In this document: piece by piece, positions 6,203 to 47,725 of the stretch | Layout: each line of letters starts with the position of its first letter | Position numbering within the stretch: the first letter of the stretch is position 1 | Sequence record: NC_054893.1 | Source of the DNA: Escherichia phage vB_EcoS_W011D | Strand: one strand, 5' to 3' | Length of the DNA stretch: 49,847 nt | Translations under genes and position numbers: made by a program | Notes under the pieces: generated by a model | What the model saw: only the letters and a program-made list of their open reading frames with translations | What the model was told of the DNA's origin: nothing | Database searches by the model: none

Positions 6203-6227
6203 AAAAAAGGGCTGGAAAGTCCAGCCC
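6203..6227 (-). terminator. Hairpin GGGCTGGA/TCCAGCCC with T-run on the minus strand, between terL and portal (likely attenuator)
   Basis: Perfect 8-bp stem followed by TTTTTTATT on the transcribed strand. Confidence 0.5.
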
Positions 6228-6240
6228 TGATTATATCAGC

Positions 6241-6260
6241 TTTTTAGCAATTAGTGCTAT
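6241..6260 (-). promoter_or_regulatory. Conserved 20-bp box copy (ATAGCACTAATTGCTAAAAA, minus orientation)
   Basis: Box overlaps the terL TAG stop; TATAAT lies only about 4 nt downstream, then the attenuator hairpin. Confidence 0.5.
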
Positions 6261-10338: not shown

Positions 10339-10395
10339 TTTCAAATCTCCTCGTTTCGCTTCAATGAGGACACTTTAACAAATGTCCTCGCGGAA

Positions 10396-10415
10396 GTTTT
10401 AGCAATTCGTGCTAT
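10396..10415 (-). promoter_or_regulatory. Conserved 20-bp box copy (ATAGCACGAATTGCTAAAAC)
   Basis: Overlaps the TAG stop of the upstream gene; followed by hairpin GAGGACA/TGTCCTC with TAAAGT in the loop region and the conserved leader GCGAAACGAGGAG. Confidence 0.6.
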
Positions 10416-11630: not shown

Positions 11631-11696
11631 CTTGTTTTCTCCTCTGATTGGTTGCTTAACTCAACGAGGAGCACTATAACAAATGCTCCTGATTTA

Positions 11697-11716
11697 GTTT
11701 TAGCAATTCGTGCTAT
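11697..11716 (-). promoter_or_regulatory. Conserved 20-bp box copy (ATAGCACGAATTGCTAAAAC)
   Basis: Followed by hairpin AGGAGCA/TGCTCCT with TATAGT 18 nt after the box. Confidence 0.6.
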
Positions 11717-12641: not shown

Positions 12642-12698
12642 TGTTTCGTTTCCTTGTTTGGTTGGTATGGGTGCATTATAGCGGGACTGATTGCCCCG

Positions 12699-12718
12699 CT
12701 TTTAACATTTCGTGCTAT
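12699..12718 (-). promoter_or_regulatory. Conserved 20-bp box copy (ATAGCACGAAATGTTAAAAG)
   Basis: Overlaps the TAG stop of the kinase gene. Confidence 0.55.
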
Positions 12719-13820: not shown

Positions 13821-13874
13821 GCTTAGTTCCTCGTTGTTTGGTGTGGGGCTACTATACCGCAACCCCAATTTCGT

Positions 13875-13894
13875 GTTTTAGCAATTCGTGCTAT
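13875..13894 (-). promoter_or_regulatory. Conserved 20-bp box copy (ATAGCACGAATTGCTAAAAC)
   Basis: Box follows the TAA-TAG end of a 27-aa micro-ORF. Confidence 0.55.
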
Positions 13895-13977: not shown

Positions 13978-14513
13978 TATTTCAACTCCTCCACGCCGTG
14001 AGATTTCAGGTGATTGTGTATATTCTCGCCGTAGTCAGTGACCGCGTAAGTTGTGATCCCCAGGCTGCGCATATGCTTAATAACCGTTGGCGAATCGTCA
14101 AAGGCGCACACAATGTTATCCAGGCCGATAGCGCGCAAAACCTCCTCTTTGATGATCGTGTCTTTGCGGTTGTCAAAACTCCGGCGCATGATGATGTGAT
14201 CGTAATGCACGCCGTTATCAGTGAGCCAATCGACTGATTCTTTCATTACCTCGTCGCTGCGCCCTGTTAGGATGATAACCGCAAAGCCTGACACCCAAAG
14301 GCCGTTGATAATGGCGATTGTGCTTCTGATTGGTAAATCATTAACGGCTGCGCGGTTAAATTCGCTCCATGATTCAGTTAGGTGCAAATCCTTTGTCGGT
14401 AGCAGGTGCAAGCGGTGTTTCCCGTCGCTCAACGTGCCATCGTAATCAACAATCACGATCCCTTTGTGGCGTGATGGCATAATGTAGGTTTGATCCCAAA
14501 TCTCAAATTGCAT
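13977..14513 (-). CDS. HAD-family phosphatase (polynucleotide 3'-phosphatase-like)
   Basis: HAD motif I DYDGTL near the N-terminus (T4 Pnk phosphatase domain has DVDGTL); AGGAG RBS. Confidence 0.6.
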   Translation of the reverse strand: MQFEIWDQTYIMPSRHKGIVIVDYDGTLSDGKHRLHLLPTKDLHLTESWSEFNRAAVNDLPIRSTIAIINGLWVSGFAVIILTGRSDEVMKESVDWLTDNGVHYDHIIMRRSFDNRKDTIIKEEVLRAIGLDNIVCAFDDSPTVIKHMRSLGITTYAVTDYGENIHNHLKSHGVEELK

Positions 14514-14778: not shown

Positions 14779-14833
14779 TGCCTTTCCTCTCGTTGGTTGA
14801 TGCGGTCATGATACCAATCAGCACACATGACCG

Positions 14834-14851
14834 CTTAACATTTCGTGCTAT
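14834..14851 (-). promoter_or_regulatory. Conserved box copy, slightly truncated (ATAGCACGAAATGTTAAG)
   Basis: Immediately downstream of the 55-aa membrane ORF stop. Confidence 0.45.
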
Positions 14852-15018: not shown

Positions 15019-15073
15019 AGTTATTTCCTCGTTTGTTGTCGATGGGTGTATTATGCCGGATTGCTCCGGCGAT

Positions 15074-15093
15074 GTTTTAACAAAAAGTGCTAT
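15074..15093 (-). promoter_or_regulatory. Conserved 20-bp box copy (ATAGCACTTTTTGTTAAAAC)
   Basis: Box contains the TAG stop of the 28-aa micro-ORF. Confidence 0.55.
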
Positions 15094-15748: not shown

Positions 15749-15803
15749 TGCTAAATCCTCGTTTCGTTTCGATGGGGTTACTATATCGCAACCCCTGAAT
15801 CGA

Positions 15804-15823
15804 GTTTTAACAAAAAGTGCTAT
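15804..15823 (-). promoter_or_regulatory. Conserved 20-bp box copy (ATAGCACTTTTTGTTAAAAC)
   Basis: Followed by hairpin GGGGTT/AACCCC with TATAGT between the arms, then leader CATCGAAACGAAACGAGGA. Confidence 0.6.
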
Positions 15824-16933: not shown

Positions 16934-16964
16934 CGTGATTCCTCCTCTGATTGGTTCGGGAGCC

Positions 16965-16992
16965 ATTATAATCAGGCCGCGCGACGTGTCAA
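16965..16992 (-). promoter_or_regulatory. Consensus sigma70-type early leftward promoter (TTGACA - 16 nt - TATAAT)
   Basis: On the minus strand: TTGACA at about 16987-16992 and TATAAT at about 16965-16970 with a 16-nt spacer; A-rich upstream tract. Confidence 0.6.
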
Positions 16993-17029
16993 TGTTTATT
17001 TTGTTTAACAGACGACTACAACCGCACAA

Positions 17030-17650
17030 AAAGACAAAACAGCGCCTAAGTCATTGAAAACAGGCTGTCTTTTTTTCTGTTAACGCTGTTAACGAGTTGC
17101 GGAGGATTAAATATATATAGATGCGCACACGCCACCCCACCCAGGCGAGCGCATACCCATATATCACTATACATCAATCCAGACACTACCCCATATCCAC
17201 CATAAACAGTGTGAACAATAAAAACAACAAATAGATATATATAAATAAATATACTTTAATTTCAATGTATTATAGAGGATTTATAGTGTTTATTTTGTTT
17301 ACTCAACACCGAAAAACGGCGCGGAAACAATGCGGAGAAATCTGTGAACACCCATGAACAAGAGGAGACAAAGCGCCATGGCGAGAGCGAAAACTTGACA
17401 CTTGCGAACCAGGTTTCACCATTCCCCACACAATCAGTAAAAATTCACACTAATTATTGTCTAAACTGCAACAATCACTATCTTGCATGATGTGCAACGA
17501 TATGCGGCTATCATTTCAGATTTTGCAATGGTGCTGCAAAGCGGTTGTTTTATACACAATCCATCAATAGCACTTTTTGTTAAAAGCGATCGGATCTGAT
17601 TTGCTATAGTTACTTCATCGAAACGGGATACCCAATCAGGAGCAAGCAAG
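17030..17650. other. 620-bp AT-rich non-coding region between the divergent early operons, carrying a ~150-bp element homologous to one in 36530-36990
   Basis: No ORF of 60 aa or more with an RBS; contains ACAAATAGATATATATAAATAAATA and GTGAACAC boxes shared with the second region. Confidence 0.6.
17567..17586 (+). promoter_or_regulatory. Conserved 20-bp box copy (ATAGCACTTTTTGTTAAAAG), first of the rightward early block
   Basis: Followed 18 nt later by TATAGT and the CATCGAAACGGGA leader before the 17652 start. Confidence 0.6.
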
Positions 17651-17651
17651 C

Positions 17652-17927
17652 ATGAACATCAGCAAAACTACTTTCAACTTTGCCAAGAAACGCGGTCTGG
17701 ATCTGACTGTTGAGGATTTCGGCGACGGTCTGCAACTGTGCATTTGGGAAGCTGATAACGATTGCGAATGGCTTTGCTCCTACCGCATCAACTATGACAA
17801 CTTAACCTGGCATGGCAACGTTTACCTCCCGCAAGAGATTAAAGAGGAATTACCAGCAACTATTAGCAACGAGGTTTTCTTGCGCCAGGTGCTGAAATTC
17901 ATCAGCGACGAAATGAAAAAGGCTTGA
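17652..17927 (+). CDS. Hypothetical protein
   Basis: 91-aa track ORF with AGGAG RBS. Confidence 0.45.
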   Translation: MNISKTTFNFAKKRGLDLTVEDFGDGLQLCIWEADNDCEWLCSYRINYDNLTWHGNVYLPQEIKEELPATISNEVFLRQVLKFISDEMKKA

Positions 17928-17946
17928 TAGCACTTTTTGTTAAAAC
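17927..17946 (+). promoter_or_regulatory. Conserved 20-bp box copy (ATAGCACTTTTTGTTAAAAC)
   Basis: Starts at the stop of the upstream gene; followed by hairpin GGGGTT/..CCCC with TGGCATAAT. Confidence 0.6.
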
Positions 17947-18001
17947 TGGATCGGGGTTAGTTGGCATAATAGCCCCATCAACCAATCAGGAGAATCGAAC
18001 G

Positions 18002-18223
18002 ATGAACTTTGAACAACAAACCCAATTCGAAACAGTAGTTACCGAACGTGACGCTACCCACGAGAAAGGATTATTCAAGAAGGGCGCACAAATCACCGTC
18101 GATATTGAGGATATGGTTGCATATCACGGCGGCATCACCTGGAATATCGCAGTGGTTGAGCCGGGCAAGAAATTTAAACTTCTGGCATTCAATACCGTGT
18201 TTGAAACTGTGGAAGGTGAATAA
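18002..18223 (+). CDS. Hypothetical protein
   Basis: Track ORF trimmed to MNFEQQ start with CAGGAGAA RBS. Confidence 0.45.
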   Translation: MNFEQQTQFETVVTERDATHEKGLFKKGAQITVDIEDMVAYHGGITWNIAVVEPGKKFKLLAFNTVFETVEGE

Positions 18224-19048: not shown

Positions 19049-19068
19049 ATAGCACTTTTTGTTAAAAC
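19049..19068 (+). promoter_or_regulatory. Conserved 20-bp box copy (ATAGCACTTTTTGTTAAAAC)
   Basis: Followed by hairpin GCGCCC/GGGCGC with TGGTATAAT between the arms. Confidence 0.6.
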
Positions 19069-19126
19069 GAAATCACGCGCCCTGGTATAATGGGCGCATC
19101 AACAAACGAAACAAGGAAATAAAGCA

Positions 19127-19644: not shown

Positions 19645-20340
19645 ATGGTTATTTGGTCACTGTTTGACGGCTCCGGCATTATGGGCCTGGATTGGGCGAA
19701 AGCTGGTCACACTGTTTTCTGTTTCAATGCTGATACAGCGGATCACGGCGAATACGAAATCAAGATGCAGCATGAAAACCTGCATTATGTGAATGCCTGG
19801 ATTGATGAAACGTTTGATCCGGCTGGCTCGGTGGCTTACCTATCAGGGAACCAGCAAAAGGTAATCAGCAAGCCTGACATTATTTTTGCTTTCCCGTCAT
19901 GCACTGAGTTAGCGCATAGTGGGCGCAAGCATGAGCGCAACGAGGACGCTGTTGATCTGGCTGTCAGTAATGCAAAACTGGTTGAGGCGTTAGGCAATCG
20001 CTATGGTTGCCCCTGGATGGTGGAAAATCCCGTGGGGCTTCTGTCAACTAAATGGCGCAAACCAAACCATTACTTTCACCCGTTCGAATACGGCGGATAC
20101 ATGCGAGAGGATGAAAAGCCTTATCATCCAAAAATGCCAGCTTTCGACGGGTACACAAAGAAAACTTGCATTTGGTGCGGTAACGGTTTTGTTATGCCTG
20201 ATAAAGTACCAGGCCCGATCAATATAGGTTTCTTTTGGGCGTGGAAGTATTTAGGCGGAAAGTCTGCCAGGACAAAGCAATTGCGCTCACTCACCCCTCG
20301 CGGCTTTTCGCGTGCCGTCATGATCTTTAATTCAAAATAG
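19645..20340 (+). CDS. Short SAM-dependent methyltransferase-like protein, possibly cytosine-C5 type (atypical motifs)
   Basis: 231 aa; LFDGSGIMG resembles MTase motif I, FPSCTE resembles a catalytic Cys motif (not canonical PCQ), ENPVG resembles the ENV motif; too short for a classical target-recognition domain. Confidence 0.4.
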   Translation: MVIWSLFDGSGIMGLDWAKAGHTVFCFNADTADHGEYEIKMQHENLHYVNAWIDETFDPAGSVAYLSGNQQKVISKPDIIFAFPSCTELAHSGRKHERNEDAVDLAVSNAKLVEALGNRYGCPWMVENPVGLLSTKWRKPNHYFHPFEYGGYMREDEKPYHPKMPAFDGYTKKTCIWCGNGFVMPDKVPGPINIGFFWAWKYLGGKSARTKQLRSLTPRGFSRAVMIFNSK

Positions 20341-20356
20341 CACTTTTTGTTAAAAG
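20337..20356 (+). promoter_or_regulatory. Conserved 20-bp box copy (ATAGCACTTTTTGTTAAAAG)
   Basis: Box contains the TAG stop of the upstream gene; followed by hairpin GCCAGG/CCTGGC then CATAAT. Confidence 0.6.
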
Positions 20357-20412
20357 CCAGGTGTAAAAGCCTGGCATAATACAACCACACCAAACGAAAG
20401 GAGCAAATCAAA

Positions 20413-20832: not shown

Positions 20833-21077
20833 GTGAAAAGCGTTATTTAGGCGTTGGCGACGTGCAAAAGGAATGGCGCTATAAAGTCATAGATGGCGAA
20901 ACTTCCTGCATGAAAGTTGGCGATATTATCAAGCCAATTAAGGTTGTTGGCGGCAAATGGCAGATCGGACACAATTACCGCCAATCGTTACCTTTTGAGC
21001 GAATAGATAGCGTTACGGCTGAATGCGTTAGCTCACTGACCGGAAAACTAATGGCTCGCATAGAGCGGATCAAATAG
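20829..21077 (+). CDS. Hypothetical protein
   Basis: 82-aa track ORF; ATGA overlap with the upstream gene. Confidence 0.45.
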   Translation: MSEKRYLGVGDVQKEWRYKVIDGETSCMKVGDIIKPIKVVGGKWQIGHNYRQSLPFERIDSVTAECVSSLTGKLMARIERIK

Positions 21078-21093
21078 CACTTTTTGTTAAAAC
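21074..21093 (+). promoter_or_regulatory. Conserved 20-bp box copy (ATAGCACTTTTTGTTAAAAC)
   Basis: Contains the TAG stop of the upstream gene; followed by hairpin GTTGCCG/CGGCAAC with TATAAT in the loop. Confidence 0.6.
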
Positions 21094-21146
21094 AGGGTAG
21101 TATTGTTGCCGTTATAATTAGCGGCAACAAGAAAGGAGATTTTCAG

Positions 21147-23124: not shown

Positions 23125-23245
23125 TGATCTGATTTATGCGCTGTTAACCATAATGCGAGCCGACATGAAAGCGTTTGGCGACAAGGAGCATAATTTATGT
23201 GATGGTGATGGCGTGATATTGGTTAACGTCAGATTGCTTGAATAG
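23051..23245 (+). CDS. Possible overlapping small ORF (64 aa); may be spurious or a frameshift partner
   Basis: Overlaps 22732-23124 by 74 nt in another frame; weak RBS; its stop lies in the next box copy. Confidence 0.2.
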   Translation: MKNYSAQKLIDEILKHCAVNSISHDDLIYALLTIMRADMKAFGDKEHNLCDGDGVILVNVRLLE

Positions 23246-23261
23246 CACTTTTTGTTAAAAA
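23242..23261 (+). promoter_or_regulatory. Conserved 20-bp box copy (ATAGCACTTTTTGTTAAAAA)
   Basis: Followed by hairpin ACCCGAT/ATCGGGT then TATATT and the CATCGAAACGAAAC leader. Confidence 0.6.
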
Positions 23262-23322
23262 ACCCGATCTTGTATCGGGTATATTTGTTTCATCGAAACG
23301 AAACACACAAAAGGAAATCACC

Positions 23323-26572: not shown

Positions 26573-26628
26573 TTTGCAAATCCTCGTTTCGTTTCGTTGA
26601 AATGATTATGCCCCACTTTCGCGGGGCT

Positions 26629-26648
26629 GTTTTAACATTTCGTGCTAT
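26629..26648 (-). promoter_or_regulatory. Conserved 20-bp box copy (ATAGCACGAAATGTTAAAAC)
   Basis: Contains the TAG stop of 26645-26878; followed by hairpin CCCCGC/GTGGGG then ATAATC and the conserved leader. Confidence 0.6.
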
Positions 26649-27736: not shown

Positions 27737-27791
27737 TTTAAATGTCCTCGCTTGTCTTGATGTGTGCATTATGGCGCATTCCGTTGCGCCT

Positions 27792-27811
27792 GTTTTAACA
27801 AAAAATGCTAT
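27792..27811 (-). promoter_or_regulatory. Conserved 20-bp box copy (ATAGCATTTTTTGTTAAAAC)
   Basis: Contains the TAG stop of the VRR-NUC gene; upstream of Dam. Confidence 0.55.
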
Positions 27812-30242: not shown

Positions 30243-30297
30243 TTTAAACCTTTAACGTTGGTTCGTTTGACGCTATACTACACGCCTAAACATATGG

Positions 30298-30318
30298 GTT
30301 TTTAACAAAAAGTGCTAT
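30298..30318 (-). promoter_or_regulatory. Conserved box copy (ATAGCACTTTTTGTTAAAAAC) in the divergent helicase / regulator intergenic region
   Basis: Only copy that does not follow an upstream gene; followed by TAGTATAGC about 14 nt later, upstream of the helicase start. Confidence 0.55.
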
Positions 30319-30331
30319 TGAGGAATTTACT

Positions 30332-30775
30332 ATGAATCGAATCGCTGTTTCAACTGGTGAAGTGGATAAACGCACAATCAATGGTAATAACGGGACACGT
30401 CGCGGAAAAGACAAAAAGCCGCGCAAGCGCAAAACAGGTTACTACGTGCTGAAAGATGAAGTAAAGGCCGGATTGCGTGCGCGCCTTGATATCTTACTGG
30501 AGTATTACGGAACGCAAGCCGAAATGTCGCGCCGTTTGAAGGTGTCGTGTCAGACCATTAACCAATGGAAGAAACGAGGCATGATTTCCGCCAGCGGAGC
30601 GCACAAGGTTCATCAGGACTATAAGCGCCAGGGGTGCAAGGGCTATCGCGCTTCATTCTGCCGCCCCGATCTGAAATTCGATTCAAACGGCAAGCCGTTA
30701 ACACTCAAGTGTGAAAAGCGCGAAATGCTCCGCGTTGTTCGCGCCTCAGATTTCGAAAACAGCACAAATAGCTAA
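30332..30775 (+). CDS. Helix-turn-helix DNA-binding regulator candidate
   Basis: 147 aa; basic N-terminus; HTH-like AEMSRRLKVSCQTINQWKKRGMIS; first gene of the rightward primase operon. Confidence 0.45.
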   Translation: MNRIAVSTGEVDKRTINGNNGTRRGKDKKPRKRKTGYYVLKDEVKAGLRARLDILLEYYGTQAEMSRRLKVSCQTINQWKKRGMISASGAHKVHQDYKRQGCKGYRASFCRPDLKFDSNGKPLTLKCEKREMLRVVRASDFENSTNS

Positions 30776-30782
30776 AACACTG

Positions 30783-30818
30783 ATCGCGTATCTGGTATCA
30801 TCCGGCTACGCGATTTTT
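30783..30818 (+). terminator. Hairpin ATCGCGTA/TACGCGAT plus T-run between the regulator and primase genes (attenuator candidate)
   Basis: Inverted repeat followed by TTTTTTATT on the plus strand. Confidence 0.4.
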
Positions 30819-35355: not shown

Positions 35356-35410
35356 TTCTCATTCCTCTGGTTAACTTGCGAGATTAATTATAACATCCCG
35401 CTTTTCATTT

Positions 35411-35429
35411 GTTTAGCTATTTGTGCTGT
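35411..35429 (-). promoter_or_regulatory. Degenerate box copy (ACAGCACAAATAGCTAAAC) between exonuclease and Erf genes
   Basis: Conserved flanks AGCAC and GCTAAA(A)C retained; TATAAT lies 18 nt downstream. Confidence 0.45.
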
Positions 35430-36543: not shown

Positions 36544-36990
36544 ATAGGTGTAATGTTATTTTTTGTTTTCTGTTGTTTGTTTTCTATAGTGATAACAAAA
36601 TTGCATCGTAAGTTATTGATTTTGTCTTTGTTGTTTTTGTGTTTACCGTGTTCACAGATTTACGCCGGATATATAGGAATAGATACACATAAACAAAATG
36701 ACCATTACACAAAGTGAAATCACCACAACCAACCAAAAACCAATGAAACATAGAGAACAAAAAGAAACAAATAGATATATATAAATAAATAAACTCTTAT
36801 TTTTCATGTATATAGTAATATTTACTGTATGCTTATTGCTCAATAGCTGATTAAAAAATAAGCTAAATTTACGCCTACGCAAATTCGTGAACACTCTGGA
36901 ACAAAAGAAAACAAACGATAGCACTTTTTGCTAAAACTTCCGGTCGAGATCGTGTATAGTGAGCGCATCTAAACCAAAAGAGGAAAACAA
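36530..36990. other. 460-bp AT-rich non-coding region carrying the second copy of the ~150-bp element shared with 17030-17650
   Basis: No credible ORF; shares ACAAATAGATATATATAAATAAATA and GTGAACAC boxes with the first region, same orientation and spacing. Confidence 0.6.
36917..36936 (+). promoter_or_regulatory. Conserved 20-bp box copy (ATAGCACTTTTTGCTAAAAC) upstream of the Cor-like gene
   Basis: Followed 17 nt later by TGTGTATAGT (extended -10-like). Confidence 0.55.
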
Positions 36991-47645: not shown

Positions 47646-47665
47646 ATAGCATTTTTTGTTAAAAT
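47646..47665 (+). promoter_or_regulatory. Conserved 20-bp box copy (ATAGCATTTTTTGTTAAAAT), plus orientation inside the leftward tail module
   Basis: Followed 18 nt later by TAGAGT; sits between the major tail gene terminator and the chaperone gene, opposite to the gene direction. Confidence 0.5.
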
Positions 47666-47699
47666 CCAGTTTGATTATTTTGGTAGAGTGATTCTACAG

Positions 47700-47725
47700 C
47701 AATAAAAAAAGGGGCGCAATGCCCC
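47700..47725 (-). terminator. Rho-independent terminator after the major tail protein gene
   Basis: GGGGCGCAATGCCCC followed by TTTTTTTATT on the minus strand. Confidence 0.65.

Follow-up and report, generated by a model that had tools for sequence, protein, structure and literature searches.

The promoter-early stem-loops (PeSLs) of T4-like phages are repeated intergenic cassettes comprising an A/T-rich stretch with the stop codon of the upstream gene, a sigma-70 promoter, a variable stem-loop, and the Shine-Dalgarno (SD) sequence and ATG of a small ORFan (PMC2839356, PMC4122927). Their stem-loops are placed either in the -35/-10 interval or so as to overlap the -10, and one of them was shown to terminate comparably to rrnB T1 (PMC2839356, Arbiol et al. 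2010); the cassettes as a group are described as terminating transcription and mediating modular shuffling (PMC2839356, PMC4122927). Variants with other -35 elements (TTTACW, TTGYVH) and Mot-box cassettes, the promoter-middle stem-loops (PmSLs), have been added since (PMC4122927, Comeau et al. 2014). A separate line of work on phage TLS reported 18 intergenic copies of aaATAGCACnnnTTGnTAAAA, divided into T, G and A subtypes, oriented with transcription and located about 76 nt 5' of start codons (PMC11447400, 2024). The function of this repeat was treated there as an open question, with a stoperator, an enhancer site or an UP element as candidates, and stem-loops are unmentioned (PMC11447400). 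In our literature searches, mentions of PeSLs were confined to T4-like or jumbo myoviruses, with none tied to T1-like phages, and the repeat sequence was found only in the TLS paper; what is annotated as the T1 "repeat region" in MK213796 corresponds to the terminal redundancy and has no bearing here. We analyzed the same repeat, here called the box, in the 49,847-bp sequence of Escherichia phage vB_EcoS_W011D (NC_054893.1; the window), with the copy at 17927 as the focus, and find that it is regularly followed by an RNA hairpin whose pairing, but not sequence, is conserved.

The window represents a T1-like siphovirus (Drexlerviridae, Tempevirinae); over the region tested, its identity to Escherichia phage PaulSarasin/Bas09 is 98.8%, and the phage is also found in IMG/VR. 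A relaxed pattern (ATAGCAnnnnTTGnTAAAA) returned 23 candidate copies, all of which entered the fold test described below, and about 22 plausible cassettes are distributed over both strands. These share the consensus box ATAGCACnnnTTGnTAAAA and a common order of elements: the box, a spacer of 18–20 nt (mostly 19), a TAnnnT hexamer, six mostly C-rich bases, A(+1)TC, an A-rich leader (e.g. CGAAACGAAAC), an SD sequence and ATG. The first-pass annotation of this DNA had already placed a -10 element 17–19 nt past the box, in about ten copies. For comparison with relatives, IMG/VR was scanned for the exact box, which gave 120 loci (L002–L121) with 450 unique copies, 388 of them with a spacing of 19. 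In the consensus built from these 388 copies, the hexamer has a near-invariant A at position 2 and T at position 6, and a G is present at -14 in 87%, while columns 1–16 of the spacer carry almost zero sequence information. The TTGnTA and TTAAAA motifs of the box are situated 22 and 19 bp from the -10, respectively, and the box core TGnTAAAA resembles an extended -10 without its final T. Based on this layout the cassette is predicted to be a promoter, with the A of ATC, 7 nt after the -10, as the probable start. In all 17 window copies that bear a hairpin, the upstream open reading frame (ORF) ends between box positions -4 and +14. The invariant TAG of the box (aTAGcac) is itself the stop codon in 11 of the 17 (e.g. 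20337, 21074, 23242, 15823- and 26648-), and in the remainder the stop lies 2–4 nt 5' of the box, with the exception of 30759+, where a TAA is found at box position 14. The ORFs downstream mostly encode hypothetical proteins of 51–250 aa.

Folding was assessed as the minimum free energy (MFE) of the 34 nt following the box, using a cut-off of -9 kcal/mol. The cut-off was reached by 17 of the 23 window copies, compared to 6.0% of 14,234 genome 34-mers (binomial p ~1e-16) and 4.9% of shuffles, and by 1 of 23 of the adjacent 34-mers upstream and likewise 1 of 23 downstream. Among the relatives, 61% of the 450 unique copies reached it. The hairpin of the focus cassette (Table 1) has an RNA core stem of GGGGUUA/UAGCCCC, with one G:U pair, and an outer stem of GAU/AUC, and folds with -12.2 kcal/mol on the sense strand (z -2.0) versus -6.6 kcal/mol (z -0.4) on the antisense strand. 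The complementary arms that had been listed by eye were all recovered, at 17927, 19049, 20337, 21074, 23242, 15823(-), 11716(-), 10415(-) and 26648(-), the earlier minus-strand coordinates having referred to the low-coordinate end of the box. It had also been remarked that several copies have the -10 in the loop or the 3' arm. This agrees with the 3' ends of the hairpins, which peak at position -1 (n=75) and at the first -10 base (n=70); some outer CGAT/ATCG pairs extend to +4. A proposed echo of the box in the loops of leftward copies, on the other hand, did not hold. The loops TTTGTTAAAG at 10415(-) and TTTGTTATAG at 11716(-) are extended -10 elements and not copies of the box, as other in-register copies from relatives have TTTGATATAG, TTTGATAGAA or TTTGGTAAAG at the same place, that is, a T-rich spacer end followed by TGn and TAnAnT, and the box-echo reading was rejected on this pattern.

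The pairing is furthermore conserved by covariation. In 81 in-register copies, a subset chosen on four core pairs and in which many copies are phylogenetically related, 93% of cells pair, compared to 74% in shuffles and 44–55% with slid partners, and 146 double-sided changes were counted where 38 were expected. Pairs 12-27 and 13-26 each use at least three Watson-Crick types; at 13-26, which was not among the core pairs used for the selection, 36 copies have AU, 25 have CG and 14 have GU. When covariation between column pairs was tested globally on all 367 spacing-19 copies, the signals were only weak, because the hairpins occupy different registers, and the in-register subset was used for this reason. 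Even cassettes located 5' of the same gene in different phages can bear different hairpins at different positions: for the gene 3' of 17927, a GGGG...CCCC hairpin surrounds the -10 both here and in phage Stevie, whereas TLS-like phages have GCCGGA...UCCGGC within the spacer. The first-pass annotation had concluded, from pairing kept without conservation of sequence, that a structure is selected rather than a single protein-binding site, and had called for a covariation analysis of the copies and their relatives. With uninformative spacer columns 1–16, a majority of copies that fold and arms that covary, that conclusion stands.

Two forms of such a structure had been envisaged, a hairpin in read-through RNA and a cruciform or single-stranded state of the promoter DNA, and the strand comparison separates them. 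The sense strand folds with an MFE of -9.7 kcal/mol versus -7.7 for the reverse complement, a difference of about 2.0 kcal/mol (256 vs 56 copies; Wilcoxon p 1e-31), and base composition offers no explanation, since in composition-preserving shuffles the sense-antisense difference was +0.3 and -0.2. Among 101 tetraloops there are 37 of the GNRA type (29 of them GAAA) and no GNRA complement, or 13 of 51 versus 0 of 37 when counted per downstream-gene cluster; UUCG tetraloops number 2, with none on the complement. Among single mismatches in stems, G:T (18) outnumbers A:C (6). Selection is thus strand-specific and acts on the sense RNA, given that a cruciform or an antisense terminator should be symmetric or biased in the opposite direction. 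With their ends at the predicted start or 5' of it, the hairpins would not be part of the cassette's own mRNA and would be present only in read-through RNA.

The occurrence of the hairpins also varies with their context. All 17 hairpin-bearing cassettes in the window directly follow a co-directional ORF, while the five hairpin-less ones (1631+, 17567+, 30318-, 36918+ and 47646+) have no co-directional gene upstream: three of them (17567+, 30318-, 36918+) are the leading promoter of a divergent block and two (1631+, 47646+) are antisense within the late region. For 432 cassettes of the relatives, the upstream coding direction was determined by a codon-usage score; the stop-to-stop ORF length was rejected as an orientation classifier, as it proved noisy (73% vs 40%). 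A hairpin was found in 74% of the 272 cassettes with co-directional coding upstream compared to 3% of the 37 with opposite-strand coding, and the contrast between co-directional and the combined opposite-strand and non-coding contexts (34/118) was highly significant (Fisher p 8e-17). At the level of gene clusters the corresponding values were 74% of 131 and 6% of 16 (co-directional vs opposite-strand, Mann-Whitney p 1.4e-7). The gene 3' of 15823(-) illustrates the rule: it is block-internal in the window and preceded by a hairpin of -17.6 kcal/mol, while in TLS it is the first of its block (DR18) and the spacer, at -2.2, forms no hairpin. The hairpins hence depend on a co-directional upstream gene, and of the two forms envisaged at the outset, the read-through RNA is the supported one.

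These observations bear on several explanations that do not involve read-through RNA. Structure at the DNA level, with cruciform extrusion or an aid or hindrance to -10 melting tuning initiation, would suit the overlap of the repeat with the -10 and discriminator in about 60% of hairpin copies and the non-canonical box-to-(-10) geometry (19 or 22 bp). It is nevertheless very improbable, as a cruciform is strand-symmetric and would not explain the advantage of the sense fold, the one-sided GNRA count or the excess of G:T over A:C; moreover, hairpin placement relative to the -10 varies between two classes, the same box and -10 without an upstream gene come with no hairpin, and stems of 5–9 bp are short for extrusion. 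The conserved stem/loop or strand-symmetric pairing of promoters of the N4 virion RNA polymerase or single-strand initiation type was not found either, the stems being diverse and sense-biased, and Rfam returned no match at the gathering threshold across the whole window. Hairpins that terminate antisense transcription could be imagined from the opposite strand, where the box complement TTTTAACAAAAA follows the hairpin and where terminator-like flags lie opposite the cassette at 15054-15071(+), 26610-26627(+), 27773-27790(+) and 23280-23262(-). This would fit only the box-abutting hairpins, though, whereas the ends of about 60% fall close to the start site; the antisense strand folds less stably and is never found with GNRA loops, and the terminator-like matches in the region (20) do not exceed those in shuffles (23), so we regard it as highly unlikely. 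We give equally little credence to the absence of any function, in which the hairpins would be passengers of duplicated cassettes, with a G4...C4 design common with PeSLs, or palindromic protein sites. A large subfamily with GGATCGGGGTA...TACCCCATCG across phages, even in Krischvirus, would agree with passengers, but many stems are unrelated, the covarying pairs use at least three types, same-gene cassettes carry different hairpins at different positions, and hairpins are lost specifically in first-in-block contexts; the diversity of the arms and the G:U pairs are likewise unfit for a single dimeric binding protein.

We consider it rather probable that the element is a composite cassette of the PeSL type between two small genes, with a hairpin that acts in read-through RNA. 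The upstream gene would end in or just before the box, and host sigma-70 RNA polymerase would start at the A of ATC, 7 nt past the TGn-extended -10, so that the downstream gene is expressed. In this compact layout, DNA without sequence constraint would be confined to the 19-nt spacer and the discriminator, and a small GC-rich hairpin is encoded there. In read-through RNA, this hairpin would attenuate or terminate transcription and/or provide the upstream message with a nuclease-resistant 3' end, and under either action each promoter-gene module would be semi-insulated. Any fitting stem would suffice, so that the arms could drift and covary while the pairing stays. Termination or attenuation as the biochemical effect is suggested by analogy with one phi1/RB49 PeSL stem-loop that was assayed with lacZ in published work, and attenuation is favored only because that stem-loop cut lacZ read-through as much as rrnB T1 (PMC2839356). 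A minority of spacers do contain textbook terminators (e.g. CCCGC-UUCG-GCGGG-UUUUG), the TLS terminators T62 and T57 abut DR12 and DR10, and at 30759+ and 6260- the hairpin is followed by T6.

Several points weigh against this interpretation. About a quarter of the cassettes with a co-directional upstream gene in the relatives are without a strong hairpin, and the selection and relatedness of the copies in the covariation subset count in the same direction, as does the predicted promoter geometry given above. A hairpin followed by TTTT is present in only 10 of 417 unique spacers, i.e. about 97% have no U-tract. The -10-enclosing hairpins (about 60%) are followed by AUCGAAAC, with about one U in the next 8 nt; the spacer-hairpin class averages 3.3 T in the next 8 nt, with no T enrichment after its stems relative to hairpin-less cassettes, and the idea that the -10 doubles as a selected U-tract was rejected on this ground. 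The phage does have U-tract terminators where blocks converge (23554+, 24767-), and the literature search found no transcript 5' or 3' ends for T1-like phages. Much of this would suit hairpins that act at the RNA level without being terminators, as processing or stability barriers that shield the upstream cistron from 3'-5' exonucleases once the A-rich leader has been cleaved and/or protect the downstream cistron as a 5' stem-loop in read-through RNA. Such barriers would explain the sense-RNA signature and the context rule equally well, together with the scarcity of U-tracts, the lack of T enrichment and the use of true U-tract terminators elsewhere in the phage, and also the fact that about 60% of copies have hairpins ending precisely at leader position -1 or +4. 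The reduction of lacZ expression by one phi1/RB49 PeSL stem-loop to about the extent of rrnB T1 (PMC2839356) and the subset of canonical terminators seen here argue against such barriers, which we regard as a doubtful though serious alternative. As for the biochemical action itself, either partial termination or attenuation or else stabilization or processing of the RNA end would fit the present data.

The coordinates of the focus cassette and of the other cassettes are collected in Table 1.

Table 1. Features of the cassette at 17927 and of further cassettes and box copies in the window.
Feature	Position	Strand	Hairpin energy (kcal/mol)	Remarks
Conserved box ATAGCACTTTTTGTTAAAA of the focus cassette	17927-17945	+		The "21-nt direct repeat" of T1-like phages; upstream ORF stop TGA ends at 17927
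Spacer of the focus cassette, CTGGATCGGGGTTAGTTGG	between box and -10	+		Sequence reading
-10 hexamer CATAAT of the focus cassette, TGG in front (extended -10)	17965-17970	+		Then AGCCCC; predicted start A (ATC) at 17977
Hairpin of the focus cassette	17949-17979	+		Core stem 17953-17959/17970-17976; outer stem 17949-17951/17977-17979; -10 within loop and 3' arm
Leader ATCAACCAATCAGGAGAATCGAACG and ATG of 73-aa ORF	17977-18004	+		GGAG 17989-17992; ATG 18002-18004
Hairpin GCGCCC/GGGCGC (19077-19097) around TATAAT (19086-19091)	19049-19098	+	-13.0	
Hairpin GCCAGG(U)/GCCUGGC (20356-20375)	20337-20387	+	-13.9 sense, -9.8 antisense	Fills spacer, ends at first base of CATAAT
Hairpin GTTGCCG/CGGCAAC (21104-21129) around TATAAT	21074-21129	+		Spacing 20
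Hairpin ACCCGAT/ATCGGGT (23262-23280)	23242-23292	+		Then ATATTTGTTT
Hairpin GGGGTT/AACCCC and outer CGAT/ATCG (15803-15769)	15769-15823	-	-17.6	
Hairpin CCGGA-GCAA-UCCGG (15070-15055)	15043-15093	-		GNRA loop
Box ATAGCACGAAATGTTAAGC, hairpin GGTCATG/CATGACC (14832-14804)	14801-14851	-		
G-type cassette, hairpin GGGGUUGC/GUAGCCCC (13867-13844)	13844-13894	-		Homology to PaulSarasin confined to cassette; flanks differ
Hairpin GCGGGG/CCCGC (12699-12681)	12668-12718	-		Abuts box
G-type cassette, hairpin AGGAGCA/TGCTCCT	11663-11716	-		Loop TTTGTTATAG (extended -10)
G-type cassette, hairpin GAGGACA/TGTCCTC	10365-10415	-		Loop TTTGTTAAAG
Hairpin CCCCGC-GAAA-GUGGGG (26627-26610)	26598-26648	-	-15.4 sense, -10.7 antisense	GNRA loop, one G:U
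Hairpin GGCGCA/TGCGCC (27790-27773)	27761-27811	-		
A-type cassette, hairpin ATCGCGTA../..TACGCGAT then TTTTTT	30759-30818	+		Canonical terminator overlapping -10 and start; box overlaps stop of helix-turn-helix regulator ORF (30332-30775)
A-type cassette, hairpin GCGGGAU/AUCUCGC around TATAAT	35378-35429	-		One G:U
"Half" cassette: box then canonical terminator (GGGCTGGA..TCCAGCCC, T6)	6208-6260	-		No -10 at usual spacing; between terminase large subunit and portal genes
Hairpin-less, first rightward cassette	17567-17620	+	-4.6 (z +0.2)	Past ~600-nt non-coding control region
Without comparable hairpin, first leftward promoter of its block	30265-30318	-	-5.8 in 34-nt window, -8.1 when fold extended past start	5' of helicase gene
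Hairpin-less, divergent from exonuclease VIII gene	36918-36970	+		No co-directional gene upstream
Hairpin-less box copies antisense to late structural genes (ATAGCAT subtype, -10 TAGAGC/TAGAGT)	1631-1683, 47646-47725	+		Adjoin major capsid and major tail genes

The "half" cassette at 6208-6260(-) is reminiscent of the half or degraded PeSLs known from T4-like phages. The antisense copy at 47646(+) faces the tail-gene terminator GGGGCGCAATGCCCC about 15 nt past its predicted start, so that its product could be an antisense RNA of very short length; the same arrangement is found in TLS, with DR7 next to T35. The control region in front of the first rightward cassette (16940-17560) is about 600 nt long, non-coding, A/T-rich and divergent, and contains a perfect consensus sigma-70 promoter (TTGACA-16-TATAAT at 16992-16965, minus strand) as well as direct repeats of TGTTTATTTTGTTTA at 16993 and 17287. 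The first leftward genes appear to be served by this canonical promoter and not by a box cassette. The 147-aa ORF at 30332-30775(+), whose stop lies inside the 30759 box, is annotated in PaulSarasin as a putative transcriptional regulator; it is a possible box-binding factor, but its NinH/YdaS-like Pfam matches are weak and below the curated cut-offs and nothing ties it to the box. With regard to the spacers, the Dam site GATC is present in 107 of 429 unique sequences (window and L002–L121) compared to about 8% expected, with peaks at offsets 3 and 12 past the box (e.g. 17949-17952 and 17589-17592); part of the excess stems from common descent within the GGATCGGGG subfamily. Dam- and Dcm-like methyltransferases are among the proteins encoded by the phage.

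The link to T4-like phages was approached through a "Phi1 like" annotation in phage Stevie, which led to Krischvirus MIZ2, whose PeSLs were then read directly. The T1-like -10-to-leader region alone served to build a position weight matrix, which gave 7 matches of at least 16 bits along the gene strand in 50 kb of MIZ2, where 0.05 were expected; 6 of the 7 lie just downstream of TTGAC. One MIZ2 PeSL reads TTGACA CTGGATCGGGGATATAT CATAAT GTCCCC ATCGAAAAC, the last element beginning with ATCG, and aligns with TTAAAA CTGGATCGGGGTTAGTTGG CATAAT AGCCCC ATCAACC at 17927. A second one reads TTGACG CGGGGAGAAATCCCCGC TATAAT ACAACC ATC and has a GNRA spacer hairpin like that of 26648(-). At the sequence level, the cassettes thus resemble Krischvirus PeSLs. 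When the two are aligned, TGTTAAAA of the box matches up with TGTTGACA, and the T1-like cassette looks like a PeSL with a degraded -35 (TTAAAA) placed 2 bp further off and with ATAGCACnnnT added upstream.

Recombination at the cassettes was followed in pairs located upstream of the same gene. Of 423 such pairs, 123 have unrelated sequence up to the box, and 84 of these retain the same spacer, while the reverse case was seen once. The comparison with PaulSarasin showed one breakpoint at a box edge (15095) and cassette-only homology at 13894; overall, a few breakpoints fall at cassette edges. The evidence for cassette-mediated shuffling is suggestive only, and gene-boundary mosaicism would yield similar numbers. 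No co-transfer of genes with cassettes was seen when 50 kb of MIZ2 was compared to the window by tblastx, the polynucleotide kinase being the only match (13995-14459(-) in the window vs 1977-2441 of the MIZ2 locus L125; 41% amino acid identity). Homologues of Stevie gp57 occur in Krischvirus FL37 and MIZ2, with about 37% identity, and also in other Drexlerviridae and a 155-kb myovirus. Together, the shared polynucleotide kinase and gp57 indicate that small accessory genes are common to Drexlerviridae and Krischvirus. It is conceivable, but only tentatively proposed, that the T1-like box cassettes and the Krischvirus PeSLs form one pool that spans Drexlerviridae and Straboviridae, in which the T1-like -35 was swapped for a lineage-specific box that recruits a factor. 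If true, a cross-family pool would make the "enigmatic 21-nt repeat" a mobile module that insulates transcription units and drives gene shuffling.

Compared to known systems, the hairpins are similar to intrinsic terminators in their GC-rich stems of 5–9 bp, frequent GNRA or UUCG loops and position just past a stop codon, and differ in that about 97% of them are followed not by a U-tract but by the -10 (AUAAU) or AUCGAAAC. The box itself is the aaATAGCACnnnTTGnTAAAA repeat of TLS and other T1-like phages; the repeat was treated alone in the TLS paper, and we suggest as its concrete role that of the upstream half of a compact promoter/stem-loop cassette. In practical terms, the annotation of T1-like phages would gain about 20 predicted transcription units per genome, and a set of very compact promoter/insulator parts would be available. 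The PmSLs of vibriophage nt-1 (PMC4122927) also use a regulator box in place of the -35, followed by a -10 and a stem-loop, and although their Mot box (TGCTT) is nearer to the -10, they set a precedent for cassettes of a PeSL-like kind that have no canonical -35. The closest likeness is to the PeSLs of the RB49/phi1 (Krischvirus) type, which are described in print as promoter-terminator composites. Both kinds of cassette start at an upstream stop in an A/T-rich stretch, continue with a sigma-70-type -10 and a variable stem-loop (often Gn-loop-Cn) in the -35/-10 interval or over the -10, and end in the SD and ATG of a small ORFan; both are located in plastic early regions at junctions of gene replacement, putative ones in the case of the T1-like cassettes, and the sequence match runs from the spacer through the -10, the C-rich discriminator and ATC to a CGAAAC leader. 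They differ in phage lineage (Drexlerviridae siphoviruses here, Straboviridae there) and in the -35, as the near-consensus TTGACA-N17 of the PeSLs is replaced by TTAAAA-N19 inside the conserved box ATAGCACnnnTTGnTAAAA. This mismatch is a subtype difference and not an exclusion, since PeSL variants with other -35 elements are admitted (PMC4122927). PeSLs have so far been described only in T4-like myoviruses, and with the similarity reported here the concept reaches a second, unrelated family. Relative to those parts of the PeSL papers that were available to us, the selection of the stem-loops as sense RNA is new, as is their occurrence only where upstream transcription can read through.

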